A stretch of 64,000 bases of DNA from a bacterium (GTDB lineage: Bacteria; UBP18; UBA7526). The translations under genes and the position numbers were made by a program. Below the pieces are notes generated by a model that searched no databases, had not been told where the DNA came from, and saw nothing but the letters and a program-made list of their open reading frames with translations. The DNA is taken from contig JAUXAI010000001.1 of the NCBI GenBank assembly GCA_030619985.1, positions 8,708 through 72,707 on the forward strand. Reading direction: 5' to 3'. Positions 6,258 to 63,563 of the stretch are shown here, piece after piece. How positions within the stretch are numbered: the stretch's first letter is position 1; each line of letters opens with the position of its first letter.

Positions 6258-6308
6258 ACCCCGCACCTTTAGGCAAGGGCAGAAAATGAATACAAAAAGG
6301 TGCGGGGT
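6258..6308 (+). terminator. Conserved stem-loop element, copy 1 (ACCCCGCACCTTT ... AAAGGTGCGGGGT)
   Basis: 13-bp perfect stem with a loop containing agaaaatgaata. It is near-identical to the element at 58741-58806. Confidence 0.6.
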
Positions 6309-7994: not shown

Positions 7995-9362
7995 ATGGAT
8001 ATAAAAGCACTAATTAAAGAAGGCGAGTCTGAAGCCTTAGAATTTAAAGAATCTACAGGAGAGTGGAAAGAGATAGTTTCAACTATCTCTGCTTTTGCTA
8101 ATACTAAAGGTGGTAGGATAATTATTGGAGTTTCTAAATCGGGTAAACTATTTGGTGCAGAAATTGGCAAAGATACTATTGAGCGTCTAAGCAATCAAAT
8201 CTCTCAGAATACCGACCCCAAAGTTCATCCCCGCATTACTACAGAGAAGATAAAAGGCAAATCCATAATCATTATTGAAGTAAAAGAGTCATCCGACCAT
8301 TTGATTCTTGCATTTGGTAGGCCATTCAAAAGGGTAGGCAAATCAACTGTCAAAATGTCCAAGGATGAGTATGAAAAGTTGATTTTAGAAAAGCATAGAG
8401 AGAAATTATATTTTGATTCTCAAATTTGTAAAGGTGCGAAGCTAAAAGATATCAATAAGGAAAGATTATTATGGTTTGTTAAGGAAGCAAGGGTTCATAG
8501 GGGTTTGGATGTAGAAGATATGCTTCCCACAGAAGAAATTTTAGAAAGATTAAAACTTTTAAAGGAAAGGAAGTTAACCAATGCCGCTATATTGTTATTT
8601 GGAAAAAATCCTCAGAAGTTTTTTCTTCAGACGATAATAAAAGCAATCAGATTCAAGGGGACTGATGTAACGGAAGATATGCTAGACTTTAAGACCATAG
8701 AAGGAGATATCCTGATTCAGCTTAAGAGGGCTGAAGACTTTATCTTTGAACACATTCCGAAACAGGCATGGATAGAAGAAGGTAAACTTCAAAGACAGGA
8801 AAAATGGTTATACCCGCCTAAAGCGATAAGGGAGGCTTTGGCAAACGCATTAGCGCATAGAGATTATGAGACAACATCAAGTGTTCAGGTTAGAATTTTT
8901 GATGATAGGTTAGAAATATGGAATCCAGGAGGTTTGCCATCAGGACTTACAGTGGAAAAACTAAAGAGAAAACATACTTCCATCCCTCGCAATCCTCTTA
9001 TTGCGAGAGCCTTCTTTTGGGTGAAATACGTAGAAGAAGTTGGCACAGGAACAAATAAGATTATCAAATGGTGTAAAGAGTGGGAGTTACCTGAGCCAGA
9101 ATTTGAAGATACAGGAACAAGTTTTGTATTAACTTTCCGAAAATTCTATGTGAGTGAAAGTTTATTAGAAGTATTGAATGAACGTCAGAAAAAGGCTGTA
9201 GGGTATCTTAGGGAAAAAGGCAAAATAACAAATAGAGAGTATCAAAAACTTTGCGCTGGTGTAAATAGAGAAACCATAAGAAAAGACCTAAATAATTTAA
9301 TTAATAAAAAAATTATTATTAGAAAAGGAGAAAAAAAAGGGGTTTATTACGAACTTATATGA
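7995..9362 (+). CDS. COG2865-type putative regulator/defence-associated protein (AlbA_2 Schlafen-like domain + HATPase_c_4 + C-terminal wHTH)
   Basis: N-terminal ...EFKES...region of the divergent AAA/AlbA_2 type; the central region resembles the RecG-C-terminal-like ATPase fold; the C-terminus is a winged helix. The six-frame ORF starts with GTG at 7983; ATG 7995 is preferred. Confidence 0.6.
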   Translation: MDIKALIKEGESEALEFKESTGEWKEIVSTISAFANTKGGRIIIGVSKSGKLFGAEIGKDTIERLSNQISQNTDPKVHPRITTEKIKGKSIIIIEVKESSDHLILAFGRPFKRVGKSTVKMSKDEYEKLILEKHREKLYFDSQICKGAKLKDINKERLLWFVKEARVHRGLDVEDMLPTEEILERLKLLKERKLTNAAILLFGKNPQKFFLQTIIKAIRFKGTDVTEDMLDFKTIEGDILIQLKRAEDFIFEHIPKQAWIEEGKLQRQEKWLYPPKAIREALANALAHRDYETTSSVQVRIFDDRLEIWNPGGLPSGLTVEKLKRKHTSIPRNPLIARAFFWVKYVEEVGTGTNKIIKWCKEWELPEPEFEDTGTSFVLTFRKFYVSESLLEVLNERQKKAVGYLREKGKITNREYQKLCAGVNRETIRKDLNNLINKKIIIRKGEKKGVYYELI

Positions 9363-14563: not shown

Positions 14564-15747
14564 ACTATTTTTCAAATAAAAACTTTCGAATAGTTGTCTT
14601 TAACCATACCCAGTATAGAAATCATAAACCAATACATGGCCCTTCTGACACCATCGTTGATTTTTTGAAGGATAATGTTTCAGGAAGGATTTTTTATGTA
14701 ATGCATTCTATTTATAAAGGTGATGGCTCTTTGCTTCAGACCTATCAAAATGGCCAGGTTCAGAAAGTTGAAAGAAGTGTTTTTTCTAAAAACTTCCCGA
14801 ATATTATGCGTTATGCTATAGACTTTTTTTCTACGTTTAGGTGGTTTATATTTGAGAAACATTTCCATCTTGCCATCGCTGTTGACCCGTTAAATTTTTT
14901 TTATGCCTATGTTCTTAAAAAATTTAGGAAGGTGGATAAGATAATTTATTATACCGTTGATTATGCTTATCGACGTTTTGACAACCCATTTCTTAATAAG
15001 GTTTATCACTGTTTAGATTTGTTTGCCGTTAAAAGGGCAGATATGCTCTGGAATTCTTGCAAAAAGATAAGAGAAGTAAGAAGGAGACAGGGAGTTCATG
15101 ATAGAAAAAATATCTATCTCCCTAACACTCCAATCTCACATGGGGTAAACATAAAAAACGAAAATGAAATTGATAAATTTTCGCTGGTCAATATTTTTTC
15201 AAATCATAAACAGGTTGATTTTGACATCATGTTTGAAGCCCTTTCCCGCCTAATTGAACATTTCCCCCAAATAACCCTCAAACTAATAGGGAGAGGAGAT
15301 TTCGCAAAAGAAGTTATACCCCAGATAAAAGACTCAGGGATACGAGGCCACGTAAAATTTATGGACATATCCTCTCATACTCAAGCTCTTGAGGAAATTA
15401 GTCGAAGTGCAATTGGGTTGGAATGTAACCCTCAGACGGAGTCTCGGAATGAATTTAGGGAGCCAATAAAGATTATGGAGTATATAACTTTCGGTCTTCC
15501 GATTATTTCCAAACCTGGCCACGGAGTTGTAGATGTAATCGTTAGGGAAAAAATTGGCTTTGTGGTCAATAGTTCCAGAGACTTTTTTGAAGCAGTCAAG
15601 GCGTTTTTGAGTGATTATAATTTTTACTGCAAGATGAGAGAAAAAGTGTTAAGGTTAGCGGAAAAGTATAATAAAGAAAAAATTCTGTTTGATGCTTTTA
15701 CCAAACTCGGTATTACGTTAGAGGCAAGGGATCATCATGTTGGATAG
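14557..15747 (+). CDS. GT-B fold glycosyltransferase (GT4-like)
   Basis: 396 aa. The C-terminal half has a Rossmann-like GT-B donor-binding pattern (LIGRGD...GLPIIS...); the N-terminal half is divergent. Confidence 0.45.
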   Translation: MVNYFSNKNFRIVVFNHTQYRNHKPIHGPSDTIVDFLKDNVSGRIFYVMHSIYKGDGSLLQTYQNGQVQKVERSVFSKNFPNIMRYAIDFFSTFRWFIFEKHFHLAIAVDPLNFFYAYVLKKFRKVDKIIYYTVDYAYRRFDNPFLNKVYHCLDLFAVKRADMLWNSCKKIREVRRRQGVHDRKNIYLPNTPISHGVNIKNENEIDKFSLVNIFSNHKQVDFDIMFEALSRLIEHFPQITLKLIGRGDFAKEVIPQIKDSGIRGHVKFMDISSHTQALEEISRSAIGLECNPQTESRNEFREPIKIMEYITFGLPIISKPGHGVVDVIVREKIGFVVNSSRDFFEAVKAFLSDYNFYCKMREKVLRLAEKYNKEKILFDAFTKLGITLEARDHHVG

Positions 15748-16657
15748 CAAATTGTTAAAAATGTTGGTCTGCCCTGTTTGCCGTAATGGTCTAGATTTTA
15801 AACACGGGCAACTTAGATGCAGGAATGCTGCCTGCGGGGCAACCTATACCATTAATGAGGATATTCCGATTATGATACCGTCCCATAAATTAACAAGCGA
15901 TTTAGAATTGACATGGGAAAGATGGGAAAGAAGTTATTCCCATGCCTCTCTTGCTGTCGATTTGGAACATGACCGCGGTCTGCAGGATAGTAACAGATTT
16001 ATTCGTCAATACGCTAATTCCCGGAAAAAGGGGATATATTTTGAAGCTGGCTGCGGACTGGCTAAAAATGCTTTGTTATTGGCCCGTGATGGGTTTACGG
16101 TTGTGGGCTTGGATATTTGCATAGGTGCTTTAAAGAAAGCAAAAGAGATCTTTCAAAGAGAAGGCCAAAGAGGTTTTTTCGTCTGTGGCGATATGAACTG
16201 TATGCCCTTTAGGGATGACTTATTCGGTACCATTTATGCCGGAGGCTCAATCGAACATTTTTCGGATACCTTAAGTTCAGTAAAGGAACTGCATCGGGTT
16301 CTGGCAAAAAACAGTATTTTGATTGCTACAGTTCCATTGGTCTCGTTAAGTACCTTGACCTATGGACAGCTTTCCGGGAACATACCAGATGTGCCATTCT
16401 TGCGCCAGCTGGCCGAGTTTATCCAGATAAGATTATTCAAAAAACGATTAATGATTTATGGGTATGAAAAATCATTTACTATAAGAAAGATATATAATAT
16501 TTTCCAAAAAGCCGGTTTTTCCGAGATCGAATACGGCCCCTATCATACGCATTGGGAAATTAAATTTTTCCGGAATAATTATGTCAAGCGTATAATCCGG
16601 AGAATCTCACGCTGCCGGCCGTTTTGGCCGTTTATTTATATCTTGGCGGAAAAATAA
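15737..16657 (+). CDS. Trm112-like zinc-ribbon domain fused to a class I SAM-dependent methyltransferase
   Basis: N-terminal LVCPVCRNGLDF...CRNAACGATYTINEDIPIM (Trm112-like), then motif I (FEAGCGLAKNALLLARDGFTVVGLDI). Confidence 0.65.
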   Translation: MLDSKLLKMLVCPVCRNGLDFKHGQLRCRNAACGATYTINEDIPIMIPSHKLTSDLELTWERWERSYSHASLAVDLEHDRGLQDSNRFIRQYANSRKKGIYFEAGCGLAKNALLLARDGFTVVGLDICIGALKKAKEIFQREGQRGFFVCGDMNCMPFRDDLFGTIYAGGSIEHFSDTLSSVKELHRVLAKNSILIATVPLVSLSTLTYGQLSGNIPDVPFLRQLAEFIQIRLFKKRLMIYGYEKSFTIRKIYNIFQKAGFSEIEYGPYHTHWEIKFFRNNYVKRIIRRISRCRPFWPFIYILAEK

Positions 16658-16660
16658 GAT

Positions 16661-18178
16661 ATGAGAATTACCTTTGTACAATCCGAAAGTGAAAATTTAG
16701 CTGTCGAATACTTATCAAGTATCTTGAAATCTCACGGACATTCGGTATATTTAGCCTTTGATTCCAAACTATTTAGTACCACTATCATAAAAAATACTCT
16801 CGGGAAGAAACTATTAGATATAAAGGATATTTTGATAAAAGAGATCGTTTTATCTAAGCCGGATTTGGTTGCCTTTTCCGTCCTTACAGGTGATTATTTA
16901 TGGGCAATAGATACCGCTAAGTCTCTCAAAGAAAAAATTAATACCCCAATTATATTTGGCGGTATCCATCCGACCTCGGTACCCGAGGAGGTAATAAGCA
17001 ACGAATGTGTTGATATAGTCTGCATTGGAGAAGGTGAGCATCCCTTAGTTGAATTAGCCGATAGCCTTAAATCAGGTCTTGATTATAGTATAAAGAATTT
17101 GTGGTTTAAAAAGAACGGTAAGGTCATCAAAAATGAAATGAGACCCCTTTTAGATTTAGATAGCCTTCCATTTCTTGATAAAGAAATCTTCTATAGCAAA
17201 GTGCCACTTTATAAAAAGATCTATGTCACGATGGTCAGTCGGGGCTGTCCTTACGAATGCACATTCTGCTGCAACAATATTTTAAAAAAGATTTATAAAG
17301 GGAAAGGCAGATATTTCAGAATTAGAAGTGTAGAAAATGTAATGGAAGAACTTAATGTAGCCAAAGAAAAGTATAAACCTAAATATTTTTCTTTTCCTGA
17401 TGATATATTTACGTCGAATAGAGCGTGGCTTGAACAGTTTATTACAAGATACAAAAAAGAAATCAATAAGCCGTTTCTTTGTTATACCCATACCAAATTC
17501 ATTAATGAAGAAATCGCCAAATTATTAAAATACGGTGGATGTTTCTGGTTAAATATCGGTATTCAGACAGCTTCGGAGAATAATCGTCGCAAGATCTTAA
17601 AGAGAATTGAATCCAATGAAGAGATAGCCCAAGCAGCCGAGAGTTGTCATAAAGCAAAATTAAAATTCTCTATCGACCATATCTTTAACATTCCTTACGA
17701 GGGAGAAAAAGAATACATCGAAGCACTTAATTTTTACAATAAATTGCGTCCCAGCATAATAAATTCTTTTTACTTAAGATATTATCCTAAAACAGAAATT
17801 ATCGATGTGGCCAAAGAAGCAGGAATTATTAATAATGATGTAGTCAAAGATATTGAGAGAGGTAGGTATTTTATACCTTTTACAGTTAGTATTGGTGGGG
17901 GTTCTCAGTCAAAATTCTATAACAAAGAAAAGACACATAATAATTTCCTTTTCCTTTTTTCTGCACTCCCTTTAATTCCTAAAAAGTTAATGGATAAGAT
18001 AATCGAAAAAAAATGGTATAATTTATTTTCATCATTTCCTGTGGCTTTTGCTATTTTGGTAAAGTTTATCGTGAGATTAAGAATCAATCAATGGTATCTA
18101 TATACAGATGAAATAAAAAGATTAGTCTACTTTGCTTTTCAAAATTTAAAACTAAAGACCGCATCCCGTAATTTTTAG
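16661..18178 (+). CDS. B12-binding-domain radical SAM protein
   Basis: N-terminal B12-binding-like domain, then the canonical CxxxCxxC (RGCPYECTFC). Confidence 0.75.
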   Translation: MRITFVQSESENLAVEYLSSILKSHGHSVYLAFDSKLFSTTIIKNTLGKKLLDIKDILIKEIVLSKPDLVAFSVLTGDYLWAIDTAKSLKEKINTPIIFGGIHPTSVPEEVISNECVDIVCIGEGEHPLVELADSLKSGLDYSIKNLWFKKNGKVIKNEMRPLLDLDSLPFLDKEIFYSKVPLYKKIYVTMVSRGCPYECTFCCNNILKKIYKGKGRYFRIRSVENVMEELNVAKEKYKPKYFSFPDDIFTSNRAWLEQFITRYKKEINKPFLCYTHTKFINEEIAKLLKYGGCFWLNIGIQTASENNRRKILKRIESNEEIAQAAESCHKAKLKFSIDHIFNIPYEGEKEYIEALNFYNKLRPSIINSFYLRYYPKTEIIDVAKEAGIINNDVVKDIERGRYFIPFTVSIGGGSQSKFYNKEKTHNNFLFLFSALPLIPKKLMDKIIEKKWYNLFSSFPVAFAILVKFIVRLRINQWYLYTDEIKRLVYFAFQNLKLKTASRNF

Positions 18179-35613: not shown

Positions 35614-37716
35614 ATGAAGATATTGTTCATTATGCCCCTGGATTACTCCGTCTATCCCTTTCAGATAGGGGCACTATCTGCCTTTCTAAAAAAACATAAA
35701 CACAAGACAGATTATTTAGAACTCATATTAGGCAGAGAATTCAACCAGGATGATGCCCTCCTGGTTGCCCGTAAAATAGAATCGTTTCAACCTCATCTGA
35801 TAGGTTTCAGTTCCTATGAAATGAGTTTTGAATGGATCAAGGATATTGCAGGTTTCATTAAGGCAGAATATAATCTACCGATTATTGTTGGTGGATATCA
35901 TGCTACCTTAGTGCCTGAGGAGGTGATTAACCACTCTTCGATTGATATGGTCTGTCGTGGAGAAGGGGAATATGCCCTCTTAGAACTATTGGAAGGAATG
36001 GAACAAGATAGAGAGACGGTAGCCATCAAGAATATCTGGTTCAAGAGGAATGGGAAGATCATTAGAAATGGAATGAGACCACTCATTGAGGATTTGGACA
36101 GGTTACCTTTCTTAGATAGAAACTCCTTTAATTATCAAGAGCAACTTAATAGATATGGGCCAAAGAGATATTTAGGAATGATGGGCAGTCGGGGATGCCC
36201 CTTTAACTGTAGCTATTGTTCTAACCATGCCTTTAGAATGCTCTACCCCAACAAGGAAAGATACTTTCGCTGGAGGTCTGTCGATCATGTCCTGAATGAA
36301 ATTGAAGAATGCCGAAGAGAATTTCTCTTTGGGGGAATTAGCTTTGAAGACGATATTTTTACTGGAATCGGGGGTTGGCTTGAAGAATTCTGTGAAAAAT
36401 ACCCCAAGAGGTTTGCCCTTCCTTTTCGCTGTAATGCCCGACCGGAGACAGCCACCTTTGAAAGAATGACCATGCTCAAGGAGGCGGGCTGCGAGAGCGT
36501 CTCTTTTGGTATCGAATCGGGAGACGAAAGGATTCGAAAGGAGGTGCTACGCAGAGACATTTCCAATTCTCAGATCAGAGAGGCCTTCAGAAACGCTAAG
36601 AGGGCGGGATTGAAGGTGAGGTCATACAGTATGGTTGGCCTGCCCCACGAGACCCGTTCTTCTCTACTGAGGACCATTCTCCTGAATTTCAAGGTGGCTC
36701 CCCATGAGGTTCAAACCACGGTCTTTTATCCCTTCCAAGGCACCTCCCTAGGTAAATTATGTTATGAGAAAAACTGGGTAGACTGGGAAAGAAAAAAAGA
36801 GGCAAAAATATACGCCAATGATTCCATCTTGAATCTGCCCACTATTTCCCGCCGGGAGATCCAGATAGCCAAGTGGATAAATTCTGCTACTGCCTTGCGG
36901 AGTGGCAACCTTAAGATTGCCAAGGCAGGAATAGGTCTTATTATCTCCAGGTTGAAGACAGTGTTGAGGAGAAAGAAGGTAGGGGGATGGAAAGAAAACG
37001 ACAGCTATAAAGTTGAAAAAAAGAGATTAATGTTGATGAAGAGCACTAATAAATTTTCTGAGTTCAATGTCCAGAAGTTCACCAAACCTATTAATTATTC
37101 CTCTTCAGATTTTAGGCTAAAGGAAGTTCTCGATTTGATTGGTACCGGGAAAAAGGTTTTGGATATTGGCTGTTATGATGGTACGGTTACAAAGTTGATT
37201 AAGGATAAAGGGAATGATGTTACGGGTCTCGAAATTTCGGATGAGGCAATAGTTTTGGCGAAAGTAAAAGACCTGCAAATTATTAAAGCAGACCTTTCAC
37301 AAGAATTTCCTGTGCCTGATAATGCTTTTGATGTGGTTTTCGCAGGAGAGGTTATAGAGCATATTTTTGACACAGACGGCTTTCTGCAGGAGATAAGTAG
37401 AGTATTAAAAAACAATGGCCATTTGGTCTTGACCACCCCAAACTTAGCTACCTTTGGCAGAAGACTGCTTTTGTTATTTGGCAAGAACCCTCTTATTGAA
37501 AATTCTATTCGAGACAAAAACTCTTCAGGTCATATTAGGTATTTTACTAAAGGTAGTTTGTCAGAATTGTTGTGCTCTAACGGGTTTAAGATAGATAAGT
37601 TAGTATCGAATGTTGTGAATTTTAATTTAAGCGGAACATTGAGGAGCAGGTTATTAGCTAAGCTTTTTCCAACCTTAGGAAGCATACTTATACTCAAAGC
37701 ATCTAAGAGGTTTTGA
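35614..37716 (+). CDS. B12-binding radical SAM domain fused to a C-terminal class I SAM methyltransferase
   Basis: SRGCPFNCSYCSN; C-terminal VLDIGCYDGTVTKL motif I and VVFAGEVIEH motif II. Confidence 0.75.
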   Translation: MKILFIMPLDYSVYPFQIGALSAFLKKHKHKTDYLELILGREFNQDDALLVARKIESFQPHLIGFSSYEMSFEWIKDIAGFIKAEYNLPIIVGGYHATLVPEEVINHSSIDMVCRGEGEYALLELLEGMEQDRETVAIKNIWFKRNGKIIRNGMRPLIEDLDRLPFLDRNSFNYQEQLNRYGPKRYLGMMGSRGCPFNCSYCSNHAFRMLYPNKERYFRWRSVDHVLNEIEECRREFLFGGISFEDDIFTGIGGWLEEFCEKYPKRFALPFRCNARPETATFERMTMLKEAGCESVSFGIESGDERIRKEVLRRDISNSQIREAFRNAKRAGLKVRSYSMVGLPHETRSSLLRTILLNFKVAPHEVQTTVFYPFQGTSLGKLCYEKNWVDWERKKEAKIYANDSILNLPTISRREIQIAKWINSATALRSGNLKIAKAGIGLIISRLKTVLRRKKVGGWKENDSYKVEKKRLMLMKSTNKFSEFNVQKFTKPINYSSSDFRLKEVLDLIGTGKKVLDIGCYDGTVTKLIKDKGNDVTGLEISDEAIVLAKVKDLQIIKADLSQEFPVPDNAFDVVFAGEVIEHIFDTDGFLQEISRVLKNNGHLVLTTPNLATFGRRLLLLFGKNPLIENSIRDKNSSGHIRYFTKGSLSELLCSNGFKIDKLVSNVVNFNLSGTLRSRLLAKLFPTLGSILILKASKRF

Positions 37717-42303: not shown

Positions 42304-42570
42304 ATGGAGATTTCAATAGTTGTCCCAGCTTTTAATGAAAAGAAAAATCTTAAGTTGCTCTATATGGAGCTAAAAGATGAGTAGACTCTCATTTAATTTA
42401 AGTTTAATCGTTCCCTGTTATAATGAAGAGAAAAATACTGACAGAGAGCATGGTTCAAGTGTGCGATGTTCTTAACCTGACTAAATTGAAATACGAAATT
42501 ATTTTTGTTGACAATATCGTCAATGGCAATATGCTTGCCCTGAAAAAGGGAACAAATTAAGGAAAATTCC
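42304..42570 (+). pseudogene. Two tandem decayed GT2 N-terminal remnants
   Basis: MEISIVVPAFNEKKNL...* at 42304-42384, then MSRLSFNLSLIVPCYNEEKNT...* at 42378-42476, followed by a frameshifted ...YEIIFVDN... segment. Confidence 0.55.
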
Positions 42571-42588
42571 CGCAGAAAAGAGGAAGAG

Positions 42589-43305
42589 ATGGTCCCCAAA
42601 GGTGAATCAATCTCCGTTGTTTTACCTGCCTATAATGAGAGAGATAATATTGAGAAAGCAGTGAGGAATGCTCAGGCAGCCCTTAAACTGATAGGCAGAA
42701 GATATGAGATTATCATTGTTGATGATGGCTCAACTGATGGAACAAGGGAAATCTGTGATGAAATAAGAAAAAAGGATCCAAGCAGAATAAGAGTAATTCA
42801 TCACCAGAAAAACATGGGCTACGGCGCTGCCTTGCGCCATGGTTTTGCCCAAGCTAAGTACGAGCTTATCTTCTATACCGACTCTGATAACCAGTTTGAT
42901 ATCTTTGAGTTGCGCTACTTCTTGCCCTTGCTCGATAGCTATGATATTGTTGTTGGTTTTCGTATCTTTCGTAAGGATAACAGACTGCGCAAGTTCATCT
43001 CCTGGGGATATGATAGAATTATTGGTAGATTACTCTTTAAACTGCAGATGCACGATATAAACTGCGCCTTCAAGTTATTTAAAAAGAAGGTTCTGGACCA
43101 GATTGAGATAGAATCAGATAATTTCTTCGTCGATCTTGAACTCCTGGCCAAGGCAAGGAAGCTGGGTTTTAAAATAAATGAGGTTGGGGTACGCCATTTT
43201 CCCAGACTAAAGGGACGGACCACCGTTGGTCACCACCATATTCTCAAAACTATAAGAGAGACCATTAAAATCTGGCGCAGCCTGCGTTCAAAAGATGAGA
43301 AATGA
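42589..43305 (+). CDS. GT2 family glycosyltransferase
   Basis: ISVVLPAYNERDNI...IIIVDDGSTDGT...DSD. Confidence 0.75.
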   Translation: MVPKGESISVVLPAYNERDNIEKAVRNAQAALKLIGRRYEIIIVDDGSTDGTREICDEIRKKDPSRIRVIHHQKNMGYGAALRHGFAQAKYELIFYTDSDNQFDIFELRYFLPLLDSYDIVVGFRIFRKDNRLRKFISWGYDRIIGRLLFKLQMHDINCAFKLFKKKVLDQIEIESDNFFVDLELLAKARKLGFKINEVGVRHFPRLKGRTTVGHHHILKTIRETIKIWRSLRSKDEK

Positions 43306-44027
43306 AGAGACAGAGAAGATATTATGAAATGGGAGAGGATTACTGGTGGTTTGCCAATAAATATAATATTGTCTCTAAATACCTTGATAGGTTAGCTAAA
43401 GGCGGTTCCCAGAGAATCCTTGATTTTGGTTGTGGCCCGGGAAACCTGATAATGCGGCTCTTAAAATATGGAGAAATCTATGGAGCAGATATCTCTCTGG
43501 ATGCTCTGCGCTACTGCAGAAATAAGAGGCAGCATTATGTCTTTCAGATAGAGGAAGGGGCAAGAGTTCCCATCAGAGCTAACTCCTTTGATTTTGTCAT
43601 CGCTTTAGATGTCTTGGAACATATTGAGGATGATTTCCACGCATTATTAGAGTTGTATCGTATCTGTAAAGTGGGTGGAAGAATAATGCTCACTGTTCCC
43701 GCCTATCCCTTTCTCTGGGGAAGTCATGACGAATTAGATGGCCATAAGCGAAGATATCAGAAATCCAAATTGGAAAGGATGATGAAAAAAGCCAATTTTA
43801 AAGTAGAGAAGATTTCTTATGTTTATATTCTATTCTTCATTCCCCTTTATCTCTTAAGGAAGTTTAAGAAATTTTTAGGGATTAAGAAAGACGATTTTAC
43901 TAAGGTCTCTCCGGGCTTAAATAGATTATTACTCTGGCTCAATGGTCTGGAGTTACATTTTCTGACCAAGTTCAATCTCCCCTTTGGAACCTCAATATTC
44001 TGTATTGGTGAAAAGGTTAGGGAATAA
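43302..44027 (+). CDS. Class I SAM-dependent methyltransferase
   Basis: ILDFGCGPGNL motif I and ALDVLEHIED motif II. Its 3' end lies in the left direct repeat. Confidence 0.7.
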   Translation: MKRQRRYYEMGEDYWWFANKYNIVSKYLDRLAKGGSQRILDFGCGPGNLIMRLLKYGEIYGADISLDALRYCRNKRQHYVFQIEEGARVPIRANSFDFVIALDVLEHIEDDFHALLELYRICKVGGRIMLTVPAYPFLWGSHDELDGHKRRYQKSKLERMMKKANFKVEKISYVYILFFIPLYLLRKFKKFLGIKKDDFTKVSPGLNRLLLWLNGLELHFLTKFNLPFGTSIFCIGEKVRE

Positions 44028-44168
44028 CATGAGATTCAAAAATCCAATTTTCTCCATCCCATGCTATGATTATAATAAAGAATACTATTCTACGCTGGGG
44101 ACTAAAGAGGGAATCCTGAAGAAAGTTAAAGAAGTGATGCGCTTTGTGGGACTAAAGGAGGGGATGAA
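43757..44168. repeat. Left copy of a roughly 400-bp direct repeat (methyltransferase 3' end + start of a small ORF)
   Basis: Aligns with 45810-46210 (e.g. ...ctggctcaatggtctggagttacattttctgaccaagttcaatctcccctttgg...) with a few percent mismatches and small indels. Confidence 0.8.
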
Positions 44169-44430
44169 TGTTCTGGGCATCGGCACGGGAAGGGGCGAAT
44201 TGGCCATAGAGTATCCTAGAAAAGGATACTGGGTGAAGGCCATCGATTTCATCTCCCAGGCTACAGAACTGGCTAAGGAGAATCTGCAGGAATCCGACTT
44301 TGCCATGACGAGACCGGGTTTCTGGAATGATCTCTTTGCCCGGGTATTCTCCTTTGAAAGACATTTTATGGGAAGAATCAGGTTTCCCCTGGGGGTATCG
44401 ATCATCATCGTGGCGGAGAAGAAGCTATGA
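44029..44430 (+). CDS. Chimeric small ORF: native N-terminus (within the repeat) fused to a GC-rich methyltransferase motif-I fragment
   Basis: MRFKNPIFSIPCYDYNKEYYSTLGTKEGILKKVKEVMRFVGLKEGM | NVLGIGTGRGELAIEY.... Composition switches at about 44168. Confidence 0.4.
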   Translation: MRFKNPIFSIPCYDYNKEYYSTLGTKEGILKKVKEVMRFVGLKEGMNVLGIGTGRGELAIEYPRKGYWVKAIDFISQATELAKENLQESDFAMTRPGFWNDLFARVFSFERHFMGRIRFPLGVSIIIVAEKKL

Positions 44431-45812
44431 GGATTGCTCTTATCCGTCCTCCACGGCCGTTTGACCGTGCATTTCTTTCGATTCAGACCCCTATCAATCT
44501 GGCCGCCCTTGCCGCCTACTTAATCCGGGAGGGACACGAATGCCGGATCTGGGATTTTGAGGTGGAATCCCGGGATTTACTGGGGGAGAAGATCGCGGCA
44601 TTTCAGCCTGATTTTGCGGGTATAACCTGTATGACTCATTCCGTGGTGGAAGGGGCCCGAATAGCAGAGAGAATAAAAGGCCTTGATCCTTCGATCCGGA
44701 TTGTAACTGGCGGACCACACCCCTCGGCCCTGCCTGAACGCACACTCAAGGAGTTTGAAGCCTTTGACATAGCTGTGGTGGGGGAGGGGGAGATTCCACT
44801 GGCAGATCTCGCAGGAGGGAAAGACCTGGAAGAGATACCGGGGGTCGTTTACAGAAAAGAAGGAGAAATTGAAAAAGGGCCCGATCCCCACCTGATAGAG
44901 GATCTCGATTCTCTTCCTTTTCCTAACAGGAGTCTTTTCAGCACCGGGGGTAAGGGCTATCGCCATCCTACGCGGGGGATTTCCTTTTCTGCCCGTAAAA
45001 TCACGCAGGTGTTTACATCCAGGGGCTGTTCCTTCAAGTGTATATTCTGTGCCATTCACCCGACCCTTACTCACAGGGTCAGGTACAGAAGCGTGGATAA
45101 TGTTATGGCGGAAATTGAGGAGTGTATAAAGGAATGGGGGATTGAACATTTTATCTTCCAGGATGATATCTTTACGCTTATGCGGGAGCGGACGCTTAAG
45201 ATATGCCGGGCATTGAAGAAGTTGGGAATCTCATGGTCATGTGACGGCCGTGTGGATACAGTCGATCTGGAAATGCTTGAAGAGATGAAGAATGCAGGAT
45301 GCAGGAAGATAACCTTTGGTGTAGAGGCAGGAAGTCCTCGGATCCAGGAACTGAACAGGAAAGGTATTACGAGCGAACAAGTGAGGGACGCATTCCGTTG
45401 GGCAAGGACCGCAGGTATTGAATTGATTGAGGGTTCCTTTATGCTCTGCAGCCACCCATCCGAGACAGAAGAGGAAATAAGGATGACCATGGACCTTGCA
45501 AGGGAGGTGGAACCGGATATCTTTTTTTTATCCGTGGCGGTACCATATCCTGGAACAGAACTCTACAGGATCATGACCGAAAAGGGATATATTCATGAAC
45601 TCAACTGGCCCTCCTTCACCATGTATGCGGAGAAACCGTGCTGGAAGACAGAACATTTTTCTTCCATGGACCTTGTCCGGTCTCAGAGAAAATATCTGAA
45701 TATCTATTATTTTAGACCGAGGTATATTTTGAATAGAATAAAAAAGACAAGGAATATGAAAGATTTAGCCTATTGGATAGCACAGGGGATGAGGTATTTA
45801 TGGAACCCATGA
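44427..45812 (+). CDS. B12-binding-domain radical SAM protein on a GC-rich island
   Basis: SRGCSFKCIFCAIH. The local GC is visibly above 50%, against roughly 38-40% in the flanks. Confidence 0.75.
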   Translation: MRIALIRPPRPFDRAFLSIQTPINLAALAAYLIREGHECRIWDFEVESRDLLGEKIAAFQPDFAGITCMTHSVVEGARIAERIKGLDPSIRIVTGGPHPSALPERTLKEFEAFDIAVVGEGEIPLADLAGGKDLEEIPGVVYRKEGEIEKGPDPHLIEDLDSLPFPNRSLFSTGGKGYRHPTRGISFSARKITQVFTSRGCSFKCIFCAIHPTLTHRVRYRSVDNVMAEIEECIKEWGIEHFIFQDDIFTLMRERTLKICRALKKLGISWSCDGRVDTVDLEMLEEMKNAGCRKITFGVEAGSPRIQELNRKGITSEQVRDAFRWARTAGIELIEGSFMLCSHPSETEEEIRMTMDLAREVEPDIFFLSVAVPYPGTELYRIMTEKGYIHELNWPSFTMYAEKPCWKTEHFSSMDLVRSQRKYLNIYYFRPRYILNRIKKTRNMKDLAYWIAQGMRYLWNP

Positions 45813-46210
45813 AATCCAGGGATTGGAAAGAATGATGAAGAAAGCCAGTTTTAAAGTAGAGAAGATTTCTTATATTTACATTCTGCTCTTTATTCCCCCC
45901 TATCTCCTGAGGAAAGCAAAAATTTTTTTGAGAGTTTAAAAGGATGATTTTACAAAAGTTCCTCCAAGCTTAAATAAACTATTACTCTGGCTCAATGGTC
46001 TGGAGTTACATTTTCTGACCAAGTTCAATCTCCCCTTTGGGACCTCAATATTCTGTATTGGTGAAAGGGTTGGAAGATAATATGAGAGTAACGAATCCGT
46101 CCCCAGATTCTTTTTATGATAAAGAATACTATTCTACCTCGAGTACCAGGAAAGAGACCCTGAGAAAAGTAAGGGAGGCACTAAGTCTGGTAGAATTGAA
46201 GGAGGGGATG
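45810..46210. repeat. Right copy of the roughly 400-bp direct repeat (degenerate; the methyltransferase 3' fragment has internal stops)
   Basis: See the left copy. Confidence 0.8.
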
Positions 46211-46324
46211 AGATCGCAATTGAGAAGGGTTCGTAAAATAATTGATAAAGTTAAGAAGCGATGTCAGGAAAAAATGAAAAAAGAAATTAAAGTAGCTTTT
46301 GTAGGTTGTGGTAAACATTCCTGA
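46082..46324 (+). CDS. Small hypothetical protein (native paralog of the N-terminus of 44029-44430)
   Basis: MRVTNPSPDSFYDKEYYSTSSTRKETLRKVREALSLVELKEGM... It diverges from the 44029 copy after LKEGM. Confidence 0.3.
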   Translation: MRVTNPSPDSFYDKEYYSTSSTRKETLRKVREALSLVELKEGMRSQLRRVRKIIDKVKKRCQEKMKKEIKVAFVGCGKHS

Positions 46325-46429
46325 TATCCGGGTATCCGGCTATCCTAGTTCCTGATCACCGGTTCGTCAGCTGACCTTAACTGTTCAGCAATAACCGGCA
46401 AACTCACAAAAGTTAGTTGTTAACTTTGG

Positions 46430-47587
46430 GTGAGGGAGATGAAAGAGATAATTGAGTTTCTAAGACAGAGGCGGAATGTGAAATATTCTGTCTGGATGAT
46501 TATTTTTGGGTTAATATTTGCTTTTAGTTTCCAGGCGAATAAAGTCCAGATTCCCCAAATTTTAGAGAAACCTATCAGAATAGTTCCCGGTACCAAAGGA
46601 AGCAAGCAGTATTTAGTTTCTGGCTGGCAGGGTGCTTATGCTAAAGGAAGAAGATCTATTCTTAGAGTTTCACTTCCCGAAGAAAAAACTTATCCGATGG
46701 TTATAAGGGCCTTTTCCTGTAGTCCTCCTGATGCCCGAGATCAAAGAATGGAGGTGCATTTTAATGATGTTGCTCTTGATAGACTGAAATTCAGAAAAAC
46801 TTCCAAGTGGCAAAAGTTTTCGGTAGATATTCCTTCTTATCTTATCAAAGAGACCAATACCATAAAGTTTGTCTATACTCAGGATACTCATCTATCTCCA
46901 ATTGCTTTTGATTATCTTGAATTTAGAAACTATATCTTCCGTATTAAAAGCCTCTATCTTTTGTTTGATCTTCCGGGACGGATTAATTATTTAACCTCTC
47001 GAGCGATTGGTTATTCCTTTGCCTTTGCTCTTTTCTTTCTATTCTTCTGGCTATTCTATTCTCGTTTTCTTTCCTTTGCTGTCAAGATAAAATTTTCCCG
47101 AGCAATAAGAATCGATTTTTTGAATTATCTTCCCAGTATTATCCTTCTTTCTACCTTCGCCTTATACTCTTTCTTTTCTCCTTGTCATTTCGTTTATTCC
47201 CTTAAGACCTTCTTCGTTCTGGCTATTGTTCCTACCGCGGTCTTAAAACTTTTCCCCTACAGAGATTTACCTTTACGGCTTGCCAGGATTGTCTTTAGAT
47301 TTATTCTCCGCAATATAGAAAAAACTTTCCTGGAGGTTAAAAGGGCTTTTTCTTTTTTGAAAACCCAAGGCAATACTTTTAGAAAGTTTCTCATTCGATA
47401 TCATAAGAAAAACTATGCTCTCGCCTTCATCCAAGATTTTATGATTTTGCTTCTTTTGTGTCTCCTCCTATCAATAATGAGAGCTAAAAAAATTGCTGAA
47501 GGGGTAGCCATTCTGGCCTATTTTCTATTGGTTATGGGGGTGGCTGTCAGGCTGAAAGAACTATTTAGGGAAAACAAGAGAGAGTAG
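46430..47587 (+). CDS. Hypothetical membrane protein (N-terminal TM, predicted beta-rich exoplasmic domain, C-terminal multi-TM region)
   Basis: 385 aa; no recognisable family motif. Confidence 0.4.
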   Translation: MREMKEIIEFLRQRRNVKYSVWMIIFGLIFAFSFQANKVQIPQILEKPIRIVPGTKGSKQYLVSGWQGAYAKGRRSILRVSLPEEKTYPMVIRAFSCSPPDARDQRMEVHFNDVALDRLKFRKTSKWQKFSVDIPSYLIKETNTIKFVYTQDTHLSPIAFDYLEFRNYIFRIKSLYLLFDLPGRINYLTSRAIGYSFAFALFFLFFWLFYSRFLSFAVKIKFSRAIRIDFLNYLPSIILLSTFALYSFFSPCHFVYSLKTFFVLAIVPTAVLKLFPYRDLPLRLARIVFRFILRNIEKTFLEVKRAFSFLKTQGNTFRKFLIRYHKKNYALAFIQDFMILLLLCLLLSIMRAKKIAEGVAILAYFLLVMGVAVRLKELFRENKRE

Positions 47588-48561: not shown

Positions 48562-49785
48562 ATGAAGAGTAAAATCTTTGTTAGTATTCTGTTTATTTTG
48601 ATAGCTACCTTAAGGCTATCTGGAGCGAGTAGAGCTGGGGAAGACTTGGTTAGTCTCATACCTGATGATGTAATGGTTGTTATGGCCATAAATAGTATCA
48701 AAAGTGATCTTGGACTGTCTTACCTAATGGAGTTAGGAAGAGAGCAATCAAAACGCAAAGAAAGCAGTCAAAATGTGGCGGCCATAGAGAAAGTATATGC
48801 CAGAATGGACCCTCTTCAGGTTGTGGGGGCAGTATTGGCTGAACCTGAAGAAAATATTTTCAGGTATATCATCGCTGTGAACATAACCGACGCTAGCAAG
48901 GAACAAGAAAAATATAGGATTTTGCTCCAGGCCCTGAATACCCTGCTAACAAGGGAAGTGGAACTTCAAACCCTAACTTACCAGGGCCATAAAATTACCT
49001 ATAGTGTTGATCGGTGGCAAAGAGATCCTGAGGATATATCGGCCTATACTTGTATCAATGGAAATGTGATACTGGGTTCAGGCATCGATGTGCTCAAGAG
49101 AGTAATTATGGTCGTTGAAGGTAAGGACCGGCCGGTACTGCAGACTAAGAAGTTTATTAATATGAAGACGAGACTTGCTAAAGGGTTGGACGGGTTTATA
49201 TATCTAAATAATAGGGATAGAAAATTTACTAAGATTTTGCGCCAATGGGAAAAAGAATGGCATATGACCTTGTTACTCTCTGCAGAGTCTATAGAGTCCA
49301 TGGGCCTTTCATTTGATATAGTTGACCCAGATACAGCCAGAGGAAAGATGGTATTTGAATCTGGTAATGAGCAAGCCCTACCCGATATTCGGGATGATGC
49401 AGAGTTCGTAGGAGAAGCAATAATGCGGAAATTCATTGCAGAAAAGATCGAGTATACCCGCAGGGTGGCCATCGATGAAGAATATGTTACCCTGAATTTT
49501 GAAGTCATGGGACTAAAACCATTATGGGCAAGAGCATTTGGGAAAGAACCAGAGATAAAAGTGGTAGAACACAGAGAAGAACCAAAGATGAAAGAAAGAA
49601 AGAAAGAAGTTGAGAAAGAACCAGAAATAAAAGAGGTGGCAGAGGAGGAGGTTGAACCTGTTTCTGAGGAGACTCCAGAGAAAATAAAGAAGACCTCATA
49701 TTTACCAAAAGTGATGCTTCTCTTATGGATGCTCGTCATAGCATTGGTAATTATTTTAGTGAAAAGGGAGAGGTCACGGAAGTAA
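48562..49785 (+). CDS. Hypothetical secreted/anchored protein: signal peptide, paralogous core, Glu/Lys-rich linker, C-terminal TM anchor
   Basis: The signal-like N-terminus MKSKIFVSILFILIATLRLSGA and the C-terminal ...KVMLLLWMLVIALVIILVKRERSRK. Confidence 0.45.
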   Translation: MKSKIFVSILFILIATLRLSGASRAGEDLVSLIPDDVMVVMAINSIKSDLGLSYLMELGREQSKRKESSQNVAAIEKVYARMDPLQVVGAVLAEPEENIFRYIIAVNITDASKEQEKYRILLQALNTLLTREVELQTLTYQGHKITYSVDRWQRDPEDISAYTCINGNVILGSGIDVLKRVIMVVEGKDRPVLQTKKFINMKTRLAKGLDGFIYLNNRDRKFTKILRQWEKEWHMTLLLSAESIESMGLSFDIVDPDTARGKMVFESGNEQALPDIRDDAEFVGEAIMRKFIAEKIEYTRRVAIDEEYVTLNFEVMGLKPLWARAFGKEPEIKVVEHREEPKMKERKKEVEKEPEIKEVAEEEVEPVSEETPEKIKKTSYLPKVMLLLWMLVIALVIILVKRERSRK

Positions 49786-50892
49786 GTGAAAATGCCAATA
49801 TTAGCTAAATTCAAACACCAGCGAACTGAAATCCTAATTTTCTCATTTTTTGGTATTCTGAGTCTAATGGCTACCCATCCTATGATCTTTAAAATGAAGA
49901 GTCATATCTACGGATATCCTGGTGATCCCTTAGGAAGTATATGGAGAATTTGGTGGTATAAATTTTCCTGGGTACATCATATTTCTTCTCGGTTTATTAT
50001 CATAATAGCCCATCCCTTTGGAGTTGATTTGAGTCAGGAAATAAGCAGTGCTCCTTTTAATTATTTAGTTTTCTTAATGGCTTTACTTAGTAATGAAATC
50101 TTTACTTATAATTTTATTCTTCTATGTGGGTTTCTACTATCAGCAATTACTATGTACTTCTTGGTTTACCACTTGACCAGAAATAGGGGAGCAAGTACTA
50201 TGGCTGGAGTGCTCTATGCCTTCTGTCCTTGGCACTTTGCTCATGCCGGGCAACATCTTTCCTTGGCTTCTATTCAATGGCTACCCCTTTACGGACTATT
50301 TCTCTTTAAACTGTTTAATAAAAGAACCTATAGAAATGCCTTTCTCTGTGCTCTGGGATTTTCCTTAGTCATTTTTACTGATTTTTCCTATGTCTTTCTA
50401 ATTTCGATTTTTACTACTGCCTTCATTGTATGGGGGTTATGGTTTACCTTGGGTCCCAACCGTAGATTCTACCCTACAAGTTCTAAGGCCTCACTTTTAA
50501 AGACAAGTATAGTAATTCTGGTAACTTTTCTCATTGCTTTGGCTATGATACTTCCTTTTACCTATTCTACTTTTAAGACCGCTCTTACGCTGCCTAAAGT
50601 AGAGTCCATGGCTATCTTAAGATACGCCAAGCCTTTTCGAGATCTTACTTCTAATTCTGCCCGGCCTTTGGGTTATCTTTTACCCTCTCAAGATAACCCA
50701 TTTTTTGGCAGGGTCACTAAAAAATTCATTAAAAGTCCCTTCTATGGTAGCCATCCTACGGAACATACCCTTTATCTGGGATGGGTGGGGATTGTGCTTT
50801 CGATTGTCGCGATAAGGGAATGGAGGAGAAAAAATAGGAAGCAGAGGATAGAGAAAAGAGGTCATCAGGTCATCAGGTCATCAGGTCATTAA
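49786..50892 (+). CDS. Polytopic membrane protein, N-terminal part of a gene apparently split by a tandem-repeat tract
   Basis: 368 aa, about 9 TM helices. It ends ...GHQVIRSSGH* inside the octamer array. Confidence 0.5.
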   Translation: MKMPILAKFKHQRTEILIFSFFGILSLMATHPMIFKMKSHIYGYPGDPLGSIWRIWWYKFSWVHHISSRFIIIIAHPFGVDLSQEISSAPFNYLVFLMALLSNEIFTYNFILLCGFLLSAITMYFLVYHLTRNRGASTMAGVLYAFCPWHFAHAGQHLSLASIQWLPLYGLFLFKLFNKRTYRNAFLCALGFSLVIFTDFSYVFLISIFTTAFIVWGLWFTLGPNRRFYPTSSKASLLKTSIVILVTFLIALAMILPFTYSTFKTALTLPKVESMAILRYAKPFRDLTSNSARPLGYLLPSQDNPFFGRVTKKFIKSPFYGSHPTEHTLYLGWVGIVLSIVAIREWRRKNRKQRIEKRGHQVIRSSGH

Positions 50893-56500: not shown

Positions 56501-57742
56501 ATGAGATACAAAGTGGCTCTACGCAATGAGACCAGGCACAGGCTGCGTACCAAGATAAAGAGGGCAGACATCGTGGTTGGTATTCCCTGTTACTATGATG
56601 AGGATACCATCGGCTATGTCATCCAGCAGGCAGCAGAAGGATTGGCCAAGTATTTCCCTAAGTATAAGAAGGTCATCCTGGTCTCTGACGGTGGCTCCTT
56701 AGACGATACCAGGGAGATCATCATCGCTGCCCCAGTTCCCAAGGTAGTGGATAAGATGTTCTTCATCTATAGGGGCCTTCCAGGAAAGGGGACCGCCTTC
56801 AGATCTGTCTTCGAAGCAAGCAAGATATTAGGAGCAAAGGTCGTTCTAACCCTGGATTCTGATTTAAGAAGCATTACTCCCCTCTGGATAAAGCTCATGG
56901 CCCATCCCGTCTTAAGCGGGAAGTATGATTATGTTACTCCTTACTATCTTCGCCATAAATACGACGGAACGATATCGAATAACATCACCTATCCCTTAAT
57001 CAGGGCCTTATATGGCCTAAGGATCAGACAGCCCATGGGAGGAGACTTCGCTCTCTCTGGAGACTTAGCCAAGGCCTACCTCATAGAGGATGTCTGGATG
57101 GGGGTTGTGGCTCGCTTCGGTATTGATAGCTGGATGACTACTGAAGCCATAAATAAGGGATATAGGATATGTCAAGTAGCCCTGGGAACAAAGATTCACA
57201 ATCCCAAGGAGCCTTCCCTGAAATTAGGTTCTATGTTTCGAGAAGTGGTGGGAACCTTATTCAGCCTAATGGAGAAGTATGAATATAATTGGATGCAGGT
57301 AAAGGGTTCCCAACCAGTAAAAACCTATGACCATCGCCAGATTGTGGAACCCGAAGCACTCTTAGTAGATGTAGAAGGGATGATCGGCCAGCTTGCCCAT
57401 CACTACTCCGACTGTCATGACATCTGGAGGGAGATCATGCCTGAGGATAACTTTCGGGCGGTAAGGGAACTGGCCCATACCAAAGAGATAAGAAACTTTA
57501 AGTTCCCTCTCGACCTCTGGGCAAGGATTGTCTATGACTTTGCCGTTGCCTATCATCAGAAGGAAATCTCCCCAGATGATGTTTTGGACCTTTTTGCCCC
57601 CCTCTACTTTGCCAAGACCGGCTCCTTTGCTCAGGAGACCTTGAGGATGAGCAGTAAGGAGGCGGAGAGGGTAGTTGAGGCCCAAGCCAAGGCCTTTGAG
57701 AAAGAAAAACCCTATTTGATCGAGAGGTGGGAAGAGGTATGA
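56501..57742 (+). CDS. GT78-like glycosyltransferase resembling mannosylglycerate synthase (candidate mannosyl-glucosylglycerate or mannosylglycerate synthase)
   Basis: Motif order PGKGTAF..LDSDL..ITPLWI...QPMGGDF...FGIDSW, as I recall it for Rhodothermus-type mannosylglycerate synthase (MGS); the assignment is from memory. About 400 aa GT-A domain plus helical C-terminal extension. Confidence 0.5.
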   Translation: MRYKVALRNETRHRLRTKIKRADIVVGIPCYYDEDTIGYVIQQAAEGLAKYFPKYKKVILVSDGGSLDDTREIIIAAPVPKVVDKMFFIYRGLPGKGTAFRSVFEASKILGAKVVLTLDSDLRSITPLWIKLMAHPVLSGKYDYVTPYYLRHKYDGTISNNITYPLIRALYGLRIRQPMGGDFALSGDLAKAYLIEDVWMGVVARFGIDSWMTTEAINKGYRICQVALGTKIHNPKEPSLKLGSMFREVVGTLFSLMEKYEYNWMQVKGSQPVKTYDHRQIVEPEALLVDVEGMIGQLAHHYSDCHDIWREIMPEDNFRAVRELAHTKEIRNFKFPLDLWARIVYDFAVAYHQKEISPDDVLDLFAPLYFAKTGSFAQETLRMSSKEAERVVEAQAKAFEKEKPYLIERWEEV

Positions 57743-61787: not shown

Positions 61788-63563
61788 ATGACTACCGAGA
61801 GGATTAGAAATTTCTCTATTATTGCCCATATCGACCATGGAAAGAGCACCTTGGCAGATAGACTATTGGAGTATACCAAGACCCTTCCTTCCCGAAAGAT
61901 GAGGGAGCAGGTATTGGATGAGATGGAACTTGAGAGGGAGAGGGGGATTACCATAAAGGCCAAAGCGGTGAGACTGAGGTACAAAGATTATATATTAAAT
62001 CTCATAGATACTCCGGGCCATGTGGACTTCTCCTATGAGGTCTCCAGGTCTCTTGCTGCCTGTGAGGGAGTCTTATTGATCATCGATGCCAGCCAGGGGG
62101 TTCAGGCCCAGACCTTAGCCAATGCCTACTTAGCAAGGGAAGCCAACCTCGCCATCATCCCCATTATAAATAAGATAGACCTTCCCAATGCCCGGCCAGA
62201 AGAGACAGAGAAACAGATAAAAGATGTCCTGGGATTAGAGGACCCCATCTTTACCAGTGCCAAGAAGGGAATGGGAACAGAGGATGTCCTGGAAGCAATA
62301 GTTGAGAGGATCCCCCCACCAAAAGGGGAGATCAATAAGCCCCTTCAGGCCTTGATCTTCGACTCTATCTATAATCCCTATCAGGGGGTAGTGGTCTATA
62401 TCCGGGTTGTTCAGGGTTCCATTAAACCAAGAGATAGGATTAGGCTTATGGGAAGGGGCAGGGATTTTGAAGTGAATGAAGTGGGGATCTTCTCTCCAGA
62501 GATGAGAAAGGTGGAGGGGCTCTCTCCAGGTGAGGTGGGCTACCTAATGGCGAATATAAAGAACCTTCAAGATGCCAAGGTGGGGGATACTATTACTGGT
62601 GCCCAAAATCCGGCCCAGAAGTCTCTTCCCGGATATAAGGAGGTGAAGCCCTTTGTCTTCGCCAGCCTCTATCCTGTAAGAAGCGAGGATTTTGGATCAC
62701 TGAAGGAGGCTTTGGAGAAGCTGAAACTGAATGACGCTTCCTTTAGTTATATAGAGGAAAGCTCCCCAGCCTTGGGCCCTGGTTTCAGATGCGGATTCTT
62801 AGGCCTCTTACATATGGAGATCGTCCAAGAGAGATTGGAGAGGGAGTATGACCTGGATCTGATAACTACGGCACCCAGCGTGGTCTACAGAGTAATCACC
62901 AAAGAGGGTGAAATTAAAAGGGTAGAGAACCCTTCTAGACTCCCTTCTCCCGCTGAGATTAAAGAGATTCAGGAGCCCTATATTAAGGCGATCATCATTA
63001 CTCCCGCCGAATACTTAGGACCCATTATGCAGTTAGTTCAGGGAAGAAGGGGAGTATATAGAGATACCAGGTATCTGGCCCCCAATACCGCCTCTTTGAC
63101 CTATGAATTCCCCCTATCTGAGGTGATCCTCGACTTCTATGATAGGCTGAAGTCTGTCTCCCGAGGTTATGCCTCCTTTGACTATGAGCATATCGGTTAT
63201 CGAAAGACGGATTCGGTAAAGGTCGATGTCCTCTTAAATAATGAGAAGGTGGAAGGATTATCCTTCATTACCCATAAGGAAAAGGCCTATCATAGGGCAA
63301 GCGAGTTGGTAGCAAGATTAAAGGAGGTCATTCCTCAGCACCTCTTTCCTGTTGCCATACAGGGGGCGATAGGGAAGAAAATCATCGCCCGGGAGACAGT
63401 AAAAGCTTTGAGAAAGGATGTCACCGCTCCCTTATACGGAGGGGATGTCACCCGGAAGAGGAAGCTTTTGGAGAAGCAGAAGAGGGGTAAGAAGAGAATG
63501 AAGAGAATTGGAAAAGTCTCTCTTCCCCAAGAAGCTTTCTTAAGCATTCTGAAGGTGGATTAG
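61788..63563 (+). CDS. lepA: Elongation factor 4 (translational GTPase LepA)
   Basis: [17 protein letters not shown]1 motif, [12 protein letters not shown]; 591 aa with LepA-specific C-terminal domain. Confidence 0.9.

Follow-up and report, generated by a model that had tools for sequence, protein, structure and literature searches.

Clusters of the O-antigen and capsule type are mosaic, and gene remnants are found in them at the boundaries of modules. Arrays of orphaned 3' remnants, as seen at loci of type VI secretion systems (T6SS) and of Rhs proteins, have been explained by homology-facilitated illegitimate recombination (PMC5361080). Here we describe a locus that can be compared with both, located around positions 43757-46210 of a 64,000-nucleotide (nt) stretch of DNA (the window) from a metagenome-derived contig (73 kb, NCBI; JAUXAI010000001.1, assembly GCA_030619985.1) of a bacterium of the lineage UBP18; UBA7526. 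It contains a complete gene for a B12-binding radical S-adenosylmethionine (SAM) enzyme, referred to below as rSAM, which is flanked on both sides by pieces of methyltransferase genes. In the original prediction, made from the sequence alone, the segment was regarded as a GC-rich island bounded by direct repeats and acquired horizontally. Our analysis indicates that the locus is neither a clean foreign island between identical repeats nor a new kind of element, but a scar of recombination of an ordinary sort. The locus is probably a mosaic junction, formed by recombination or deletion among at least three homologous modules, composed of a family 2 glycosyltransferase (GT2) and a methyltransferase, in a modular glycan cluster. 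Its layout has three breakpoints, at about 44290, 45812 (the stop codon of rSAM) and 46210, and is best read as the outcome of no fewer than three events of recombination or deletion.

The present order of genes and fragments is GT2, an intact methyltransferase gene (MT1), the head of a second methyltransferase gene (MT2; 87 amino acids, aa) fused to the tail of another MT1-family gene (MT1'; 45 aa), the intact rSAM gene, a further MT1-family tail (MT1''; 85 aa, one stop), a further MT2 head (MT2''; 43 aa) and unrelated DNA, all on the plus strand. The GT2 gene (42589..43305; PF00535, E 2.6e-34) opens a GT2-MT1-MT2 cassette held in common with a 121-kb JGI metagenome contig, L006, which was our sole syntenic comparator for this region. 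Nucleotide homology to L006 spans 42536-44276 at 74%, and the encoded proteins are 75% (GT2), 68% (MT1) and 55% (MT2) identical, while the remainder of the L006 cluster is unrelated to the window. MT1 (43302..44027) codes for an intact class I SAM methyltransferase of 241 aa (Methyltransf_11/23/25; 287-297 bits with the MT1-family hidden Markov model, HMM, described below), the homologues of which share 68-79% aa identity. The first fragment, N1 (44029..44289), is a truncated MT2 head comprising aa 1-87, SAM-binding motif I included, and is 55-57% identical to aa 1-106 of the L006 MT2, a protein of 267 aa (identical in sequence to P0242) whose gene follows MT1 there. It continues in frame into T2 (44290..44430), the last ~45 codons of another MT1-family methyltransferase, the TGA of which overlaps the ATG of rSAM (ATGA).

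Past the rSAM gene (44427..45812) a second pair of fragments is found. T3 (45817..46068) is an MT1 3'-end remnant whose homology starts at the rSAM stop codon; it corresponds to positions 157-243 of an MT1-family profile HMM (54-64 bits), built in this analysis from 113 MT1 homologues, and lacks codons 1-155. N2 (46082..46210), located inside an open reading frame (ORF) at 46037/46082-46324, is a remnant of an MT2 head (~aa 1-43), with 61% identity to aa 13-45 of the L006 MT2. The right-hand fragments had been described as decayed, with internal stops in the methyltransferase tail. The decay is real, as the 5' codons are gone and the tail is interrupted, but the interruption is a single in-frame stop (TAA, 45937-45939), with zero frameshifts. 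The DNA past the N2 breakpoint (46211..46429) consists of the 38-codon end of a small ORF and a non-coding gap, gave no significant family match, and precedes the gene of a 385-aa membrane protein. A candidate for a fourth methyltransferase head at 46232-46315 (KVAFVGCG) was dropped at -2.5 bits. When the whole 64 kb was scanned in six frames with the MT1-family HMM, MT1-type tails were located at three sites (intact MT1, T2 and T3), all of them within 2.3 kb.

The arrangement resembles that of the effector-immunity loci of the Vibrio cholerae T6SS and of the orphan arrays of Rhs and contact-dependent inhibition (CDI) systems, in which displaced 3' remnants, each with its own downstream DNA, lie behind a conserved upstream part, with no integrase or transposase, and in which the module is common to otherwise different loci. 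Two traits expected of displacement were found here: a conserved upstream anchor, GT2-MT1(-MT2), which is 74% identical at the nucleotide level to L006 in a different cluster, and orphaned 3' remnants downstream, T2 and T3. Likewise, no integrase or transposase domain was detected in the ORFs of 42589-47587. On the other hand, the genes concerned code for glycan-modifying enzymes, not for toxins and immunity proteins, the remnants are two only, and a purely deletional origin is equally possible. With O-antigen and capsule clusters the locus and its surroundings share a large one-strand set of sugar-nucleotide, glycosyltransferase, flippase and modification genes, heterogeneous GC content, truncated remnants at junctions, and cassettes common with unrelated clusters. 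They differ from such clusters in the uncultured host, in the unusually high number of B12-radical SAM genes (five), and in having no insertion sequence (IS) or H-repeat-like elements at the junction.

The reading frame 44029-44430, which joins N1 to T2, had been predicted to be chimeric, and this was confirmed, though its composition turned out to be different from that proposed. It was thought to combine a native N-terminus with a foreign methyltransferase motif-I fragment, joined at 44168; instead, aa 1-87 form one contiguous MT2 head, the junction lies at ~44290, and what is joined to this head is the C-terminal tail of an MT1-family protein. The halves were resolved by an exhaustive HMMER search against 1.84 billion representative sequences, in which aa 1-108 matched the N-termini of methyltransferases of ~270 aa, and aa 81-131 matched only the extreme C-termini of methyltransferases of 175-264 aa, at 50-57% identity; a word-indexed homologue search returned the ORF itself as its sole match. 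The MT1-family HMM recognised the tail at 44272-44424 (positions 194-244, 23-31 bits). The junction was spanned by one weak match only, P0255 (172 aa, 41%), which by eye does not have an MT2 head, and no second instance of the 133-aa chimeric architecture occurs among the 1.84 billion representatives. The step in GC content at 44168 was dismissed as a recombination breakpoint because the L006 MT2 gene shows the same GC peak at motif I (0.55-0.72); this step is thus partly intrinsic to the MT2 gene. We infer that MT2 is inactivated here, and the only function of the chimeric ORF is probably to preserve the coupling of translation to the rSAM gene.

A direct repeat of ~400 bp, made up of the 3' end of MT1 (codons 156-241) and the initial ~45 codons of the next ORF, is present as had been predicted, its copies being offset by 2053 nt. 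The left copy (43769..44167) comprises the MT1 tail, i.e., the final 86 codons of MT1, and ~46 codons from the start of the MT2 head; the right copy occupies 45822-46210. The ungapped core (43769-44045 and 45822-46098) is 277 nt long and 83% identical, and homology extends to 44167 and 46210 once one 9-nt indel is allowed. A 50-nt piece of the core has exactly two occurrences in the window, against none in 100 shuffles. The copies are, however, far from the near-identity ascribed to them: overall they agree at ~78% of positions, with 85% (213/250) in the MT1-tail part and 65% (85/130) in the MT2-head part. Moreover, identity varies in blocks along the repeat, from 92% at 43769-43828 through 69% at 43829-43918 to 97% at 43919-44012, and then 65% in the MT2 head. 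Within the third block and its border lies a near-identical tract (43927..44013, with its counterpart at 45980-46066) of 87 nt with one mismatch, including a 61-nt exact run, which is probably a gene-conversion or crossover tract.

Adjacent blocks of the repeat also have different affinities. For the left copy, the nearest relative in the 69% block is the MT1 homologue of GCA_030019215.1 (L007; 82%), labelled as an Actinomycetota metagenome-assembled genome, and for the right copy it is the MT1 homologue of another locus, L009 (76%). Quartet-informative sites at 43829-43926 favour the pairing (left,L007)|(right,L009) by 10 against 3 and 2, whereas those of the next block, the near-identical tract, support (left,right), with counts of 7 vs 0 and 1; the two blocks differ significantly (10:3:2 vs 0:7:1; Fisher p = 0.003). 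In the MT2 head, the left copy, the right copy and L006 are about equidistant (65%, 65% and 69% at the nucleotide level). Such a mosaic of identities, together with the different nearest relatives, indicates that the copies are old homologues and not the outcome of a fresh duplication. Mismatches between them are skewed to the third codon position (22 vs 12 and 7), and the differing codons comprise 17 synonymous and 16 non-synonymous ones; the third-position bias implies that most of the divergence accrued while both copies were working genes. The copies are old paralogues or xenologues, in which ~90-150 nt were later made more alike by gene conversion or a crossover. A recent segmental, tandem or target-site duplication would have left copies that are mutual closest relatives and near-identical throughout, and the observed range of 65-97% does not agree with this. 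Hence duplication of the junction between the methyltransferase and the small ORF, as proposed originally, is not supported in view of the 65-85% identity and the block-wise affinities to L007 and L009.

Relatives of MT1 point to the mobility of these genes. At L007 (7407-10522) a 5'-truncated MT1 homologue, 80.6% identical at the nucleotide level to window positions 43582-44014, lies directly downstream of transposase genes of the IS256 type (Transposase_mut) and of IS110. Because this near homologue is found next to transposases in a locus that beyond MT1 has merely distant similarity to the window, it suggests that the MT1 gene moves between lineages. In L009 (1-378) the MT1 homologue, 75% identical, is preceded by only the last ~20 codons of GT2 (…RTIRETTRMW…KDK), and these by an unrelated coding sequence, so that another module-boundary remnant is seen there. 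Pairs of a GT2 gene and an MT1-family gene, the stop codon of the one overlapping the start codon of the other, are widespread. Other searches yielded little: exact look-ups with the rSAM protein of the window gave zero contig records, scanning of genome contigs with MT1 gave one distant locus (45% identity over 80 aa), viral contigs gave zero matches to the repeat core, and among the matches listed from a metagenome scan with the MT1 alignment there were only relatives of at most 42% identity.

The most likely explanation of the locus involves modules of a single type, each consisting of a GT2 gene, an MT1-family methyltransferase gene and a downstream gene, fragments of at least three of which have become joined; L006, where a full-length MT2 comes after GT2 and MT1, shows an order of the ancestral type. 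The joining could have happened in two ways. In the first, sequential displacement, incoming GT2-MT1 cassettes would oust the residents one by one: a cassette would pair with the conserved upstream part, its far end would join illegitimately inside the resident MT1-family gene, and the resident 3' remnant would be pushed along together with its downstream gene. The block from GT2 through MT1 to the MT2 head would then be the newest arrival, and the unit of the MT1' tail and rSAM would be older. In the second, internal deletions would have taken place within a once longer tandem array of modules. The 61-nt identical run, which has enough length for homologous recombination, could also permit RecA-mediated loss of the 2053-bp segment, with MT1 kept intact.

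Several points weigh against this explanation. No parental or intermediate arrangement was found in the searches of rSAM and MT1 relatives, L006 is the only syntenic comparator, and rSAM has no relative closer than 46%. An rSAM homologue near an MT1-family gene was found at none of the 80 distant loci listed, with flanks of up to 6 kb, so that the pairing of MT1' with rSAM is without an outside parallel. Finally, the sequence is a metagenome assembly, in which the 61-nt exact repeat could have misled the assembler.

The rSAM gene itself is complete, in accordance with the original prediction. Its product of 461 aa, a class B (B12-binding) radical SAM enzyme, has an N-terminal cobalamin-binding domain (PF02310, E 8.1e-23, aa 19-128) and a radical SAM domain (PF04055, E 3.9e-27, aa 197-358) with the CxxxCxxC motif in the form GCSFKCIFC, and is covered to 99% in the alignment with its homologues. 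At its C-terminus the protein lacks 5-10 aa in comparison with most of them, which is consistent with a breakpoint at the 3' end of the gene. The best external homologue is 46% identical, and the closest ones occur in unrelated contexts (ribosomal or RNase genes, a LUD domain gene). Origin of the gene as a recent paralogue of the four other B12-radical SAM genes of the window was dismissed because the best of them is 34% identical. The top NCBIfam match is HpnJ (TIGR03471; E 6.6e-71), with which the protein shares the N-terminal B12-binding domain and the radical SAM core with CxxxCxxC; it nevertheless scores 239.6 bits, far below the curated cutoff of 577.6 for this equivalog, has no hopanoid genes in its context, and is a generic class B enzyme. 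Its most likely role would be a cobalamin-dependent radical modification, probably C-methylation, of a glycan sugar or of a lipid carrier or lipid-linked intermediate. Minus-strand ORFs of 190, 139 and 107 aa over the gene, the longest at 44577..45149, had been considered spurious, and we agree, since they lie wholly inside a well-supported plus-strand gene and have zero Pfam matches. Elsewhere in the window, a 256-aa ORF without a Pfam match at 49044-49814 on the minus strand is antisense to a 407-aa plus-strand ORF (48562-49785) and is probably spurious too.

The alternative that fares best, although we consider it unlikely, is that a foreign, GC-richer segment with rSAM was brought in at the MT1/MT2 junction by a single recombination step. 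A homeologous fragment with its own MT1 tail and MT2 head might, for example, have circularised and been integrated by a single crossover, which would generate the flanking direct repeats. The geometry (A-B-cargo-A'-B') fits such an event, the 87-nt near-identical tract could be the crossover site, L006 has no rSAM at this position (MT1 and full MT2 are followed there by a GT4 gene, with flanks that are otherwise unrelated), and the relatives of rSAM are at most 46% identical, compared with 68-80% for those of MT1. The cargo is also the most GC-rich stretch of the window and the richest in glycine, alanine, arginine and proline (GARP), the GARP fraction of rSAM, 0.275, being the highest of all genes. 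Furthermore, the best matches of T2 are Ala/Arg/Gly/Pro-rich methyltransferases, one fetched locus having 68% GC.

A jump from 38-40% to over 50% GC had been reported for the segment; there is indeed a rise to the top of the window, 44170-45810 having 48.9% against the window mean of 40.1%, and the highest 1.4-kb window, starting at 44101, reaches 50.4% (z about +3), but 50% is exceeded only around 44100-44800, where the 500-nt peak is 54%. Other genes attain 48-49%, LepA (61788-63563) and the gene at 56501-57742 being examples at 48%, and the four B12-radical SAM paralogues have ordinary values (0.33-0.43). The rSAM gene has the highest GC1 and GC2 (GC at first and second codon positions) in the window, but is not an outlier in GC3 (third positions; 0.522, z +1.5; mean 0.414, standard deviation 0.072, maximum 0.568), Karlin codon bias (z +1.05, rank 9/47) or tetranucleotide distance (z 2.65, below the 3.1 of LepA). 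The GC excess thus lies mostly in amino-acid composition, and the anomaly is moderate. As GC3, codon bias and tetranucleotides are within the range of other genes, GC is weak evidence of horizontal transfer; the composition agrees with acquisition at an earlier time from a lineage of higher GC, and foreign origin of rSAM is plausible but unproven. Of the proposed horizontal acquisition by recombination, what stands is that the locus is a product of recombination, that rSAM is absent from L006 and that its region is richer in GC than any other of the window.

Further difficulties of one-step entry concern its mechanics. A non-replicating fragment of 2 kb would have to circularise; the donor would need a prior MT2::MT1' fusion and the recipient a prior MT2 stub, which brings the total to about four events; and the donor-derived MT1 tail would be AT-rich (~33-36% GC), like the resident one. 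Integrases, transposases, tRNA genes (in the whole window) and att-like features are all lacking, and Rfam gave zero matches. The resemblance to a classical genomic island, with its compositionally deviant segment, flanking direct repeats and absence from one relative, is limited: the repeats are diverged gene fragments of 400 bp, not short identical att sites, mobility genes are lacking, and codon usage is not deviant.

It is improbable, in our opinion, that the arrangement is an artefact in which two co-occurring populations were joined, or the repeat was mis-threaded, at the 61-nt identical tract. The contig was assembled from a metagenome, and the exact run is longer than 55, the largest default k-mer of metaSPAdes. 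Both copies, however, have distinct diverged flanks, so that the sample contains both; the reading frames stay coherent across 44027-44430, as does the ATGA coupling; and the two flanking regions do not depart from the rest of the cluster in gene order, strand or GC. In-situ tandem duplication from MT1 codon 156 to the end of rSAM, after which the second copy would have been mostly deleted and its rest left to decay neutrally for a long time, is highly improbable. In its favour are the head-to-tail copies, the junction exactly at the rSAM stop codon and the fact that over the full MT1 tail left and right are mutual best matches (85%). Against it, the copies at 43829-43926 agree with each other at 69% only, but with genes of two different organisms at 82% and 76%, and the MT2-head parts lie no nearer to each other than to L006. 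The third-position bias indicates that the differences built up while selection was acting, unlike those of a dead copy, and prokaryotic pseudogene fragments rarely last to ~35% divergence.

Recombination or deletion among GT2-methyltransferase modules is therefore the explanation we favour, and it may be asked what it would mean. An extension of it, suggested by analogy and in our view rather doubtful, is that the GT2-MT1 pair would act as a conserved recombination anchor for swapping the downstream glycan-modifying enzyme, either a class I methyltransferase or a B12-radical SAM enzyme, by sequential displacement in uncultured bacteria. If this were true, the anchor would represent a cassette-exchange system for surface-glycan diversification, like the orphan arrays of Rhs, CDI and T6SS loci, and the flanking 61-nt tract would further permit some members of the population to lose the rSAM unit. 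For annotation, neither the 133-aa nor the 80-95-aa ORF should be entered as a protein, both being fusion remnants. As to the method, horizontal transfer should not be called from a GC "island" alone when this stems from amino-acid composition. From the biological point of view, the locus is one more example of module shuffling in very large, radical SAM-rich glycan clusters of uncultured bacteria; its evolutionary interest is modest, and further such cases could show how these clusters diversify.

The window as a whole is a surface-glycan supercluster of ~55 kb, with genes on one strand throughout. It includes genes of RmlD, epimerases, nucleotidyltransferases and a Wzx-like flippase, at least eight GT2 genes, several methyltransferase genes, genes of GT-C, PMT_2 and AftD-like enzymes, and those of AsnB and a SPASM radical SAM protein. 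The five B12-radical SAM genes start at 6286, 16661, 26036, 35614 and 44427, and a second adjacency of a methyltransferase gene followed by a radical SAM gene is located at 15737-18178. The gene at 35614-37716 codes for a 700-aa fusion of B12-binding and radical SAM domains with a C-terminal class I methyltransferase (aa 504-662). Amid the glycan biosynthesis genes, a Schlafen/AlbA_2 gene with HATPase_c_4 (7983-9362; GC 0.35, GC3 0.29) may have been inserted there as a regulatory or defence-type gene.

Promoter and terminator scans showed no significant enrichment, a single terminator-like site being located inside the rSAM gene. The best sigma-70-like match of the region, TTGACA-16-TATGCT (10/12), is found at 42508-42535, in the 290-bp gap upstream of GT2, and abuts the start of L006 homology (42536). 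A short imperfect tandem motif, GATATCCGGGTATCCGGCTATCC, occurs at 46325-46350, right after the stop of the remnant ORF that contains N2.

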